Shown here one piece after another: positions 42,859-45,800 of a stretch of 64,000 nucleotides of DNA. How positions within the stretch are numbered: position 1 is the first letter of the stretch; each line of letters opens with the position of its first letter. The stretch lies in NCBI RefSeq assembly GCF_009931435.1, contig NZ_CP043414.1; one strand, 5' to 3'. The position numbers were made by a program. The stretch comes from Escherichia coli (GTDB lineage: Bacteria > Pseudomonadota > Gammaproteobacteria > Enterobacterales > Enterobacteriaceae).

Positions 42859-45800
42859 TAAATATAATGCTGCATCTATCACCGGATACAATGCTTTGCT
42901 GAACGCAGCCTGAGCCTGTACATAACCTTGTCATTTCCTGACTTTAATATGCTCATTCCAACATCGGAAGAAAGTTAAATTATGGACGACAAACCATGCA
43001 GGCTCTGGCTAATGAACTAGCCAATAAACTCAAAACACTAAAAATCTCGGCCAGCTCAAAAAAGTCAGTGTAATGACTTCTTCTGACAGCAACAGGTGAT
43101 GAAAAACTAGTCCCGCATTACCGGCATTCCCGTCAACCACCAGGGGTTCCGGCCTGGCATCGCCCGAAAATATTCCCCCACACATCCTGCCGCGCTGAAA
43201 TAGCCCATAGAGAACCAATACGCGTATCAGACTGCCCTGTATATGTAGTGGCGTTTCATCCGCCTGTAACACCGGATAAATGAGCGATTTCTTATAGTTA
43301 TTCTTTTGCTTAATAACGATTATTTCCGGGTCGTTCGCTCTCGTATTTTCTTTAATACGTCTACGCTGCCTGGGCCGTAATAAAACTTGTTCAGATCTGT
43401 TACGCATGTACCAGACCCGACACGGCATTTCTGACCCGGGAAAAAGTCAACGATGAGTCGTTATATCAGCGCAAATGACGTTTTGTGGCACCGTTGCGGT
43501 GACCACATTCACGTCTTCGGCGCTGCCAGAGGATATTTATTTCAAGGATGCATAGCATTATGGCCAGCATTAAAGACATACGCCTATTCGCCCCATCTTC
43601 CTATAACACAGGCGTACACCCGTCAGGGCGGCGCTTACTGACGGTGGAATTCAAGAATCATCTTTTGCGGAACATGCAGTATCTCGGCCCGCAAAAATTT
43701 CGCTGGGGTGATGCCCCCCAGAGGATCATTGACCTCAGTAACGCGGACAAAGTGAAAATACAGATGGAAAACAATATTACCATCACGTTGGAGGCCCCTC
43801 CGGATCCGCAATATAACGAGTTCAGGTTGGTCGCCGAATGGTGCACATGGGCTATACAGCAAGATGGTCTGCAAGAAAACCTGCACGAAACTCTGAAAGA
43901 AACCCAGCAAGAAATCCTGCAAAAAAAAGTGCCAGAAATATCACAAGAAGACGTGAAAGAAATCCTGAAAAATATCCTGGAAGAAAACCTGCCAGCAAAC
44001 CGAACTGAAAACCGGGCAGAGGCATTGCGCAGAATGAAGGAATGTCTCATAAATAGACAAATTATGCTCAATCTTAGCGACCTTGGATTGACCTCACTCC
44101 CTGAAAATTTGCCTCCACTTCTGATGAAATTTTACTGCAATAATAACGTGTTGTCCGCGTTACCGAAGATGTTGCCGAAGGAACTGAGGGTGCTTGAGTG
44201 TATGGATAACGTTTTGATCTTGTTACCAAAGGTGCAGCCCCCGAAACTGATGATACTGAAGTGCTGTGAAAACTATATTATCTGGCTACCTGAGCTGTCG
44301 CCTAACCTGAGAGTGATTGACTGTTCTGAGAACTCATTGCAATTTTTACCGCCGTCGATGCCTCAGTACCTGTATACACTGCGCTGTGCTGACAACTGTA
44401 TTAGCTTCATACCTGATGAGATGCTGGAGAGCCTGACTCGCCTGAAAGTATTTGACTGTTCTAGTAACGATTTGATCTCTGCACCACGGCTGCCGCCCAA
44501 GCTAATAATATACTACTGTGGTCACAACCAGTTTAAAACGATACCGGTGCCGCAGCCCCGTAGCCTGAAGTTGTTTGACTGTAACAGTAACCCTTGGGAC
44601 ACAGACAATTTGCCGACGCTGCTCAAAGCCGTTGAGGGCCTGAAAAAACAGGAAGGCCTGTCGGACCTTTTAGACTTTTTGCGCAAGGAAGGCCAGTTTG
44701 ACCTGGAGGGACTCGAGGAGCTGGAGGACCTGATGGCTCTGGAGCACCTGGAGGATCCGGTACTCCTGGAGCGCGTGAAAGTACAGGAGGACCTGGAGCT
44801 CCTGGATCAGCAGTTGGGCCTGTTGAGTCTGGAAAGACAACAGGACTCGCAGCCTGTTAATCAACATTCTGAACATGAACCCGAATCTGCATTAAGGGTA
44901 AAGCGAGATTTATCTGAAGTCGAGTTCGAGTCAACAATGAAGCGTAAGCGTTTTATGTAGAACGCCTGTGCGGTGAGCTCAGGTTCCGGGGAAATAGTGT
45001 CCATCATTTTAATGGGCACTATCATGGAAAATGGCTCTGTCACATTAACAGCGAAAGTTGCTGACCAGCCGGATGGATGATTTTTTTGCAACCAGAAGAC
45101 ACTGCCTCCGATCCGGCTTACAACAAGTTACACCGTCACAACCGGGACCCGTAACGCCAGCGCGCACATCAACTCATAACCCACGGTTCCGGCAGCGGCG
45201 GCAACATCATCAATTTTGATCTCCTTGCCCCACAGCTCAACCGGTGTACCAATACCCGCCTGCGGGCAAGGCGTTAAATCGACCGCCAGCATATCCATCG
45301 AGACTGTCCCCACCGTCATGGTACGCACGCCGTCGACTAAAACAGGTGTACCGGTAGGCGCGTGGCGCGGATAACCGTCGGCGTATCCTGCGGCAACAAT
45401 GCCGATTCGTTGCTCATCGCGCGCAGTATAGCGACCGCCATAGCCCACACGCTCACCCGCTTTTAGCGTCTGGACACCAATAATCTCACTGCTTAGCGTC
45501 ATTACCGGACGTAATCCGGTATTGGCGATATCGCGCCACTGACCCGACGGCGAAGCACCATACAAAATAATGCCAGGCCGAACCCAGTCAAAATGCGCTT
45601 CCGGATGCCACAGAGTCGCCGCCGAATTGGACAATGAACGCCGACATTCCAGCCCTTCCGCCGCCTGCTCAATACGCGCCATTGCGCCGGCAATCCCCTC
45701 AGGATGCTCCGCCTCGGCAAAATGCGACATCAGAGTCATTTCGCCAACATTCGCCATCGCCCGCAGCTGCTGCCAGACGGTAAGCACACGATCGGGCTGG

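Follow-up and report, generated by a model that had tools for sequence, protein, structure and literature searches.

A long intergenic region upstream of an Escherichia coli leucine-rich repeat gene is probably the left third of a small genomic islet that begins with a decayed IS256-family end

Several described systems resemble parts of the locus analyzed here. Small genomic islets of E. coli are, like this one, low-GC, single-gene segments at a fixed position in the core genome that are polymorphic between strains (empty, full, or deleted) and subject to erosion driven by insertion sequences (IS). The IS256 family encodes a Mutator-type DDE transposase, and IS1414 carries astA. Leucine-rich repeats (LRRs) of the LPX type make up the LRR domains of the type III effectors SlrP, SspH2, IpaH, and YopM. 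YmgM is a small protein that has been detected experimentally in K-12, and its K-12 sequence is available (PMC6001520).

The window is a 64,000-nucleotide stretch of an E. coli contig (NZ_CP043414.1), within which we examined the interval between cvrA and a downstream LRR gene. A previous reading of the sequence alone (the sequence-only reading) had put this gap at about 700 bp; it measures 698 bp, from the cvrA stop at 42861 to the conserved LRR start at 43560. Our main conclusion, to which we assign a probability of about 0.8, is that the interval makes up the left third of an islet of 2.2 kb and consists of a decayed IS end, a neutral spacer, and some 310 bp that probably control the LRR gene. 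It is thus an ordinary part of the islet and no purpose-built leader. From left to right, the ancestral spacer takes up 34 bp, the islet end 16 bp, the IS ∼220 bp, neutral sequence ∼120 bp, and constrained sequence ∼310 bp. The features of the locus are as follows.

42733 to 42891, minus strand: ymgM-like fragment corresponding to YmgM residues ∼18 to 67; shares 30 nt with the left edge of the interval.
42862 to 42895: ancestral cvrA-dadX spacer, the left arm of a split convergent terminator hairpin; aligns to empty-site spacers, including that of Nissle 1917.
42896 to ∼45107: low-GC islet of 2.2 kb with a single LPX-type LRR gene.
42896 to 42911: leftmost 16 bp of the islet, TTGCTGAACGCAGCCT, also kept in K-12-like and O157 genomes.
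42907 to 42918: 12-nt sequence AGCCTGAGCCTG (flank plus IS tip), with an inverted copy at 42999 to 43010 within the 5' end of the transposase gene (92% complementary).
42912 to 43130, plus strand: decayed left end of an IS256-family (IS1414-like) element, with terminal inverted repeat, transposase start, and second transposase fragment.
43030 to 43428, minus strand: 132-aa open reading frame (ORF), on the strand opposite the IS remnant and neutral spacer.
43131 to 43249: indel-rich spacer that evolves neutrally; here the window and other alleles are 82 to 83% identical, which equals synonymous divergence.
43250 to 43559, plus strand: constrained proximal upstream region, the presumed promoter and 5' untranslated region (UTR), with an AT-rich block, a hairpin, and a Shine-Dalgarno sequence.
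43467 to 43525, plus strand: imperfect, conserved hairpin of 59 nt that ends 35 nt before the LRR start codon.
43560 to 44960, plus strand: LRR gene (466 aa) with LPX-type leucine-rich repeats, fast-evolving.
44887 to 44960, plus strand: last 74 nt of the LRR ORF, kept in K-12-like genomes, where they directly adjoin the IS remnant.
44961 to 45107: 3' end of the islet, with an 11-bp-stem hairpin past the LRR stop and with an arm, at 45067 to 45077, that pairs with the ancestral right hairpin arm at 45108 to 45118.

The islet has a GC content of 42 to 50%, versus 52 to 59% in its flanks, and it is recognized as an insertion because relatives have only a ∼55-bp cvrA-dadX spacer with a single intact hairpin. 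Carriers of this empty site are three non-coli Escherichia; Citrobacter, Dryocola, and Phytobacter; and B2-type E. coli such as Nissle 1917, ST131, and JJ2434. RNA folding of the intact Nissle hairpin gave a dG of -22.8 and a z score of -3.2, and the same region in the window gave a z score of -0.12. These comparisons show that the islet inserted in the loop of the terminator hairpin shared by the convergent cvrA and dadX genes. The right boundary lies at ∼45103 to 45111; on the left, 16 bp separate the IS tip from ancestral sequence. A repeat search found no clean target-site duplication at the islet ends. What it found were a weak, imperfect direct repeat of 13 to 15 nt at 42896 and 45058 (TTGCTGAMC..AGCC; the copy at 45058 to 45070 is TTGCTGACCAGCC) and the weak candidates AGAGGACACTG / AGAAGACACTG at 42843 and 45094. 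The locus does not have the makings of an integrase- or tRNA-associated island: a tRNA scan of 38000 to 49000 was negative, the neighbors are all core genes, and the repeat is weak and imperfect. Beyond its IS part, the leader had no phage match in homology searches, and its matches among plasmids were limited to IS256 transposases and to this E. coli locus itself, in chromosomes that are filed as plasmids.

The proximal part of the interval is under constraint. Over 43250 to 43559, identity is 93 to 95% between the window and the other alleles and 98 to 99% among the others, compared with the ∼83% expected for neutral sites (binomial P of 1e-5 to 1e-11). The evolutionary rate of these ∼310 bp is about one-third that of synonymous sites, and they hardly vary among nine alleles even though the LRR proteins of these alleles are 25 to 34% different from that of the window. 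An earlier suggestion that the long leader may hold regulatory elements is supported for this part only, and not for the distal part, which evolves at the neutral rate. Within the proximal region lie an invariant AT-rich block (43279 to 43358, 200 to 280 nt upstream of the LRR start), the 59-nt hairpin, and the Shine-Dalgarno sequence AAGGA at 43544 to 43548. The hairpin folds with a dG of -32.4 kcal/mol (z score of -4.55), a value reached by none of 200 shuffled sequences, and almost all of its stem bases are invariant in the nine alleles. Covariation analysis of the proximal leader and the hairpin returned no compensatory pairs, the stems hardly varying across these alleles. The hairpin does not resemble a terminator or attenuator: its strong stem is not followed by a T-run, and the scan reported nothing on the plus strand. 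Promoter and small-RNA prediction, which had been proposed as a check, came back empty: no sigma-70-like promoter or intrinsic terminator was predicted inside the interval, and Rfam gave no match at E ≤ 1 on either strand of 41000 to 46500. Even the best sigma-70-like matches of the leader fall under the shuffle average, and for that reason no promoter position can be named.

Judged from this pattern of conservation, the proximal ∼310 bp are probably the functional part of the interval, supplying the LRR gene with its promoter and 5' UTR. The promoter, weak or activator-dependent, probably lies in the AT-rich block, and the hairpin, as part of the 5' UTR, would affect transcript stability or read-through. 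Conservation of the hairpin could reflect a DNA-level protein-binding palindrome instead of an RNA structure, and recombination between alleles, instead of selection, could partly explain the low proximal divergence. A bolder proposal is that the ∼310 bp and the hairpin form a dedicated cis-regulatory element (RNA structure or operator) for a diversifying, effector-like LRR protein and that the locus, separately, records the birth of YmgM; we regard this as speculative and rather improbable.

Another explanation could be that the LRR gene is promoterless and expressed only through read-through from cvrA, the 698 bp being an intercistronic spacer. The two genes are co-oriented, the insertion split the ancestral terminator hairpin, and neither an intrinsic terminator nor a sigma-70 consensus is predicted between them, all of which would fit. 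However, the constraint on the proximal 310 bp, including the invariant AT-rich block, would not be expected in a mere spacer, and Rho-dependent termination is likely in 700 nt of untranslated RNA, which further weighs against this explanation. We therefore consider exclusive dependence on read-through unlikely and prefer a promoter within the proximal region. Since the terminator hairpin is split and no terminator is predicted before the LRR gene, part of LRR transcription may also stem from cvrA read-through.

The 132-aa reverse-strand ORF, which the sequence-only reading had described as lacking a recognizable domain, is present and matches no family in Pfam or NCBIfam. Were it a real gene, the interval would be coding. 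It does have 132 uninterrupted codons with an ATG start, and PGAP annotates a 125-aa hypothetical protein there in the identical genome NZ_CM148325. Yet indels of 35, 19, and 1 nt inside the ORF separate the alleles and break the frame; the homologous ORFs of other alleles are 95, 78, or 37 aa long with different starts, and PGAP calls vary between genomes. Moreover, the C-terminal third is antisense to the IS pseudogene, and most of the span evolves at the neutral rate. Because it lacks a family match and is broken differently in other alleles, the ORF is probably spurious, and a real gene is very unlikely. In the annotation of the identical genome, two "hypothetical proteins" are probably artifacts. 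We also discarded an upstream ORF at 43453 (62 to 79 aa, open in all alleles), which has no good ribosome-binding site (RBS) and whose few differences within the first 36 codons are mostly nonsynonymous.

The left edge of the islet carries the IS remnant. Its terminal inverted repeat begins at 42912 (GAGCCTGTACAT...), and from there the sequence aligns with the left repeats of IS1414 and of a live relative; both the left and right terminal repeats of IS1414 were defined for comparison. In blastn searches with IS1414 and one related live IS copy as references, 42912 to 43057 corresponds to the left terminal inverted repeat, the 5' UTR, and the first ∼75 nt of the transposase gene (80.7%, E value of 1e-33), and 43090 to 43127 matches the same gene at 87%. 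The transposase ATG, at 42982, is followed by a frameshift after ∼5 codons and then by an internal deletion; a second transposase fragment occupies 43086 to 43130 (...RITGI). When the transposase was compared with the allele leaders by tblastn, only N-terminal pieces, amino acids 1 to 25 and 77 to 103, were found to survive, with an E value of 1e-3 for the window and of 1e-5 to 3e-4 for sister alleles. Many chromosomes and plasmids also contain matches to the region, located under annotated IS256/IS1414 transposases. The full transposase of the live relative matches Pfam PF00872 (Transposase_mut; 1e-111), the remnant peptide alone matches no Pfam family, and no DDE domain is left. Since no right-end homology was detected by blastn anywhere in 42862 to 45127 and no flanking target duplication of 8 to 9 bp was found, 42912 to 43130 is a dead remnant and no complete element.

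The sequence-only reading had been headed by the claim that the leader bears no mobility signatures, and it had named IS remnants as evidence to the contrary; the remnant at the left edge of the islet refutes that claim. Of its description of the flanks, the absence of a tRNA and an integrase holds, but the absence of an IS end does not.

K-12-like genomes keep the left 16 bp of the islet, the left end of an IS, the 3'-terminal 74 nt of the LRR ORF, and the ∼150-bp 3' region; because both islet ends are retained, they are deletion derivatives. O157 represents a second, independent deletion, with end points that differ from the K-12-like ones. The islet is present in about 834 of 5,426 complete E. 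coli genomes, the K-12-like arrangement in about 3,260, and an intact O157-type junction in 145. An ancient insertion and a deletion in K-12-like strains had been offered as alternatives; the empty sites and the islet ends retained in K-12-like genomes indicate that both happened, in succession. Alignment against other Escherichia, also proposed earlier, placed the insertion within a few bases and distinguished four states of the site. The cvrA-dadX site can accordingly serve as a clean four-state marker for E. coli: empty, full, K-12-type deletion, and O157-type deletion.

The IS remnant of K-12 is identical at 96 of 97 positions to a present-day IS copy and only 82 to 86% identical to the remnants of islet-bearing alleles. 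We propose that the K-12-like arrangement began with a younger IS copy that entered the 3' end of the LRR gene in inverted orientation. Subsequent deletion between copies of a 12-bp direct repeat would have removed everything from the old IS tip through ∼nt 100 of the new copy. The start of the younger transposase gene would thereby have been joined to the cvrA antisense strand, generating ymgM. In this model, AGCCTGAGCCTG is the short repeat at the K-12-type junction, and the predicted intermediate is a full IS1414-like copy whose left end abuts CATCAAGGGTAAAGCG. None of the 5,426 genomes has a full inverted IS beside the LRR 3' end, which counts against the model.

K-12 YmgM owes its RBS and first eight codons to an IS1414-like transposase; the remainder lies mostly antisense to cvrA. 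The window encodes that cvrA-antisense part on the minus strand of 42733 to 42891 (Pfam PF23693 [YmgM], E value of 7.9e-32, profile positions 18 to 67 of 67), opposite the last ∼42 codons of cvrA and the spacer, with an in-frame stop just upstream. Unlike in K-12, the IS-derived RBS and start codon and the first 8 codons are not present in the orientation required, and the window accordingly has no intact ymgM. Because the K-12 start codon and RBS are missing, the fragment is probably not expressed as YmgM. The sequence-only reading had missed this minus-strand ORF. ymgM is a compact case of gene birth through IS activity, and it cautions that "conservation" of the Pfam YmgM family is poor evidence of function.

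The opposite orientation of these IS pieces could suggest an invertible switch, in which a ∼97-bp unit between inverted 9- to 12-mers (GAGCCTGYA / TRCAGGCTC) turns ymgM on in the K-12 orientation and off in that of the window. The unit is indeed oppositely oriented in the window and in K-12-like genomes, a 12-nt inverted repeat flanks it, and the K-12 orientation supplies the RBS and start codon of ymgM. However, the two orientations are different DNA, the K-12 copy being 99% identical to the live IS and 82 to 86% identical to window-type copies; orientation is fully linked to allele type in every genome examined; and no recombinase gene lies nearby. A switch is therefore highly improbable. 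Synthetic hybrid queries (K-12 copy plus LRR leader, or old copy plus K-12 right junction) identified no hybrid genomes. A simple 97-bp inversion between the window and K-12 was dropped for the same reasons, namely, distinct IS copies and no hybrid genomes. It is just as hard to credit that the scars have eroded, the origin is untraceable, and the leader lacks a mobility signature: an integrase, a tRNA, and a clean target-site duplication are absent and the right edge has no IS end, but the IS256-family left end at 42912 to 43130 is clear, having both a terminal repeat and a transposase start, and the site of insertion in the ancestral hairpin loop is located with a precision of a few bases.

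The LRR gene itself encodes repeats that match the LRR part of the SlrP and SspH2 NCBIfam models (E values of 9e-25 and 1.5e-18), with a score far under the family cutoffs (87 versus 1,113 bits). Neither Pfam nor NCBIfam revealed a NEL domain, as a NEL-type T3SS effector would have, or any family in the N- and C-terminal regions. The protein was found only in E. coli and Shigella. Within the searchable literature corpus, no paper describes an LRR gene at the cvrA-dadX site, and ymgM is mentioned in only two. In the N-terminal 150 codons, dN/dS exceeds 1; because this stands beside a strongly conserved upstream region, the sequence data make the LRR gene a reasonable candidate for a host-interaction factor.

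The gain for this locus is mostly one of housekeeping: a long intergenic region is explained, and the supposed lack of a mobility trace at the LRR gene is corrected. Compared with known systems, the remnant matches IS1414 and the IS256 family in its left terminal inverted repeat and 5' UTR, in a transposase that begins with MDDK(Q/P)LQALANE, and in a further stretch of N-terminal transposase sequence. It keeps only ∼220 of the 1,314 bp of IS1414, at ∼80% identity and with an internal deletion and a frameshift, and it lacks the DDE domain, the astA region, the right end, and a target duplication. The LRR protein has the repeats of LPX-type effectors but, unlike SlrP and SspH2, has no NEL ubiquitin-ligase domain and scores below their cutoffs. 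Finally, the islet departs from typical small E. coli islets in having no integrase, tRNA, or phage association, in sitting in the loop of a convergent terminator hairpin, and in having undergone at least two independent deletions with recognizable ends.

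The window is part of an E. coli chromosome, with the gene order emtA, ldcA, cvrA, LRR gene, dadX, dadA.

Genes bordering the interval
41125-42861, plus strand, cvrA
43560-44960 (start ATG at 43560), plus strand, LRR gene; start kept in all alleles and also chosen by PGAP
45128-46198, minus strand, dadX

Because the LRR ATG lies at 43560, downstream of a Shine-Dalgarno AAGGA at 43544-43548, the interval spans 42862-43559 (698 bp). The descriptive part of the sequence-only reading holds: this long interval carries a 132-aa minus-strand ORF (43030-43428) that matched no Pfam or NCBIfam family, and no tRNA lies within 38000-49000. 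Rfam returned 0 matches for the interval, and no consensus promoter or terminator was predicted inside it. The observation is real, and its key negative claim, that mobility signatures are lacking, is mistaken. As the outcome of islet acquisition and IS-driven decay, with a conserved upstream region of putative control function attached, the locus is ordinary.

Species-representative genomes were scanned with K-12 YmgM. Matches came from three non-coli Escherichia (Escherichia sp. MOD1-EC7003, E. whittamii, and SCPM-O-B-8794, whose record is titled "E. coli" and which is only ~91% identical to the window across cvrA and dadX) and from Citrobacter, Dryocola, and Phytobacter. The cvrA-dadX gap is only ~35 to 110 bp in all of these outgroups, and the Escherichia spacers align to window positions 42862-42895 on the left and ~45103-45127 on the right. 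The same spacer, 56 bp long, is found in Nissle 1917, ST131, JJ2434, and many other E. coli. These empty sites bear out insertion, one of two origins that had been proposed for the interval, which forms part of an inserted islet of 2.2 kb. GC content is 42 to 50% in this islet (42896 to ~45107), versus 52 to 59% in the flanks; a clean target duplication and a right-hand IS end were both looked for at the islet, and neither was found. One 2-kb contig binned under a Collinsella sp. MAG (L015, JAIJJM010000586.1) matches the E. coli islet at 84% identity; it almost certainly comes from E. coli and was mis-binned.

The empty-site spacer folds as a single strong hairpin (dG -22.8, z -3.2) that looks like the shared terminator of the convergent genes cvrA and dadX. 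In the window this ancestral hairpin is split into a left arm (42878-42895) and a right arm (45108-45118), and the left part alone has lost its folding (z -0.12). At the right end of the islet (45067-45118), the arm AGCCGGATGGA pairs with the ancestral right arm CCGATCCGGCT, rebuilding a larger-loop hairpin that adjoins the dadX stop codon and may preserve dadX termination after insertion.

Contrary to the statement that no IS end was visible, the interval contains an IS256-family/IS1414-like left end. When 5426 complete E. coli genomes were searched with the islet by sensitive blastn, 42929-43057 matched annotated IS256-family or IS1414 transposase regions on many chromosomes and plasmids. 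Two matched elements were aligned to the window: L006, a related live copy encoding a Mutator-family transposase (PF00872, 1e-111), and L007, the 1314-bp IS1414 reference element, with imperfect terminal repeats of ~30 bp beginning GAGCCTGT.

IS pieces within the interval
42912-43057, left terminal inverted repeat (GAGCCTGTACAT...), 5' UTR, and first ~75 nt of the transposase gene (ATG at 42982); 80.7% identity, E 1e-33
43090-43127, a further transposase-gene segment, ~270 nt deeper into the gene; 87% identity

Positions 43070-43127 were independently matched by IS256 transposases of Enterobacter and Klebsiella plasmids, and sister-allele remnants still read MDDKPLQALANE-LKTP...FRLQQVKKNQPRITGI, which corresponds to transposase residues 1 to 25 fused to residues 77 to 103. 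Together, the matches to these elements indicate that ~220 bp of the "leader" is a dead IS end.

The second proposed origin, a deletion in K-12-like strains, also finds support, since both islet ends are still present in the K-12 type; on these alignments, K-12-like genomes are deletion derivatives of the islet-bearing state. One such genome (L003) is collinear with window positions 42702-42918 and 44887-45300 at 94% identity, and the K-12 type retains the first 16 bp of the islet, a 97-bp IS left end, the last 74 nt of the LRR ORF, and ~150 bp of the islet 3' region. Its IS end points the opposite way to that of the window, and a 12-nt inverted repeat (42907-42918/42999-43010) brackets the IS unit. 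A simple flip of this unit was rejected: the K-12 copy is identical to present-day L006 at 96 of 97 positions and only 82 to 86% identical to the remnants of islet-bearing alleles (90 to 97% identical among themselves), and neither possible hybrid, K-12 copy beside the LRR leader or old copy beside the K-12 right junction, occurs in any genome. The apparent inversion reflects two different IS copies. In the most economical model, a younger copy would have inserted in inverted orientation into the 3' end of the LRR gene, followed by deletion between AGCCTGAGCCTG (flank plus old IS tip) and AGCCAGAGCCTG in the new copy, the latter being the reverse complement of its transposase codons 7 to 10. 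This model gives exactly the K-12 left junction; a search for the intermediate that it predicts did not find one.

A deletion independent of the K-12 type is found in O157 genomes (L017:1745-1884 and L019, both O157:H7). It fuses nt 1 to 62 of the window-type IS remnant, kept in window orientation, to the final ~105 nt of the LRR gene, and some O157:H7 strains have an IS3-family element at the point of fusion. Another such element lies between the LRR gene and dadX in the islet-bearing strain E700025 (L018:2632-3977); thus, IS traffic at the site continues. Yet another deletion at the locus seems to have fused cvrA to the LRR gene in the case of P0049, a 444-aa protein in which a Na+/H+ exchanger domain (PF00999) is combined with an LRR domain.

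States of the locus in 5426 complete E. coli genomes
Islet present (at least 80% coverage): 834
K-12-like arrangement, including O157-type: about 3260
O157 junction uninterrupted: 145
Empty site, by subtraction: roughly 1000 to 1300

Leader identities were calculated for the window and three other alleles.

Leader identities
43058-43249, distal leader: window versus others, 82 to 83%; among others, 96 to 97%
43250-43559, proximal leader: window versus others, 93 to 95%; among others, 98 to 99%

The distal leader is also rich in indels. Compared with synonymous divergence (0.17 to 0.19 in the LRR gene, 0.13 to 0.20 in cvrA and dadX), these identities indicate that the distal leader is neutral and that the proximal leader evolves ~3-fold more slowly (binomial P, 1e-5 to 1e-11). 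The proposal that the leader may hold regulatory elements is therefore supported only for the conserved proximal 310 bp. The proximal leader is near-invariant across nine alleles, despite LRR proteins that match the window's at only 66 to 75% identity. Its most constrained stretches are an AT-rich block (43279-43358) and 43404-43557, the latter including a 59-nt hairpin (43467-43525; dG -32.4, z -4.55, 0/200 shuffles) that has no 3' U-run and showed no covariation, its stems hardly varying. No sigma-70-like site in the leader scored above the shuffle average. We read the proximal 310 bp as the putative promoter and 5' UTR of the LRR gene, the promoter probably being weak or activator dependent. 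Because the terminator is split and none is predicted downstream, cvrA read-through may contribute to LRR transcription.

Neither ORF considered within the interval was accepted as a gene. The 132-aa ORF was judged spurious: it is broken between alleles by indels of 35, 19, and 1 nt, its counterparts elsewhere measure 95, 78, or 37 aa and begin at different points, PGAP picks a different ORF at the site in each genome, and it is partly antisense to the IS pseudogene. The ORF from 43453 (62 to 79 aa) is open in all alleles and was not counted, since the few amino acid differences over its first 36 codons are mostly non-synonymous and it has no good RBS.

Homologues of the LRR protein are restricted to E. 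coli and Shigella, and all those with a contig examined sit at the cvrA-dadX locus. The repeats are similar to SlrP and SspH2 LRR domains, with scores far below family cut-offs, and no NEL domain was detected by Pfam or NCBIfam. Within E. coli, alleles share only 66 to 77% protein identity, and dN/dS is 0.6 to 0.9 overall. The values of 1.2 to 1.85 over the first 150 codons in 9 of 10 allele pairs, with the ORF intact in every allele examined, suggest diversifying selection on the N-terminal domain. A CTGGAG-rich 9/18-nt periodic repeat (44685-44834, 11 copies) in the C-terminal part of the gene encodes an acidic Leu/Glu-rich stretch (LEGLEELEDLMALEHLED...).

Chromosomal epitope tagging has detected the 67-aa protein YmgM in K-12; its gene sits between dadX and cvrA, with a convergent overlap into cvrA (PMC6001520; PMC12288877). 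In the K-12-like genome, ymgM occupies L003:4872-5075 (window counterparts, 42733-42891 and 42982-43005). At least the 72 nt upstream of its ATG, together with the RBS, the ATG, and codons 1 to 8 (MDDKQLQA), are identical to the IS transposase 5' end except for one terminal-repeat mismatch, and residues ~26 to 67 are antisense to the final 42 cvrA codons. K-12 YmgM is a chimera of an IS1414-like transposase 5' end and cvrA antisense, an origin for which we found no report in the searchable literature. In the window, a minus-strand ORF (42733-42891) matches Pfam YmgM positions 18 to 67 (E 8e-32); here the IS end has the opposite orientation and the YmgM frame is preceded by a stop codon, and therefore intact ymgM is absent. 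Outgroup matches span residues 14 to 67 only, which fits "conservation" of the YmgM family as a shadow of cvrA. Although the window has an intact 578-aa cvrA ORF, PGAP calls cvrA an incomplete pseudogene missing its C terminus in L001:3264-4934, L005, L017, L018, and L019, probably an artefact of the overlapping YmgM-like ORF having been annotated.

What can best be reused from this analysis, as by-products, is the origin of YmgM and the fast-evolving LRR gene; the region itself is a new example of already known kinds of things.
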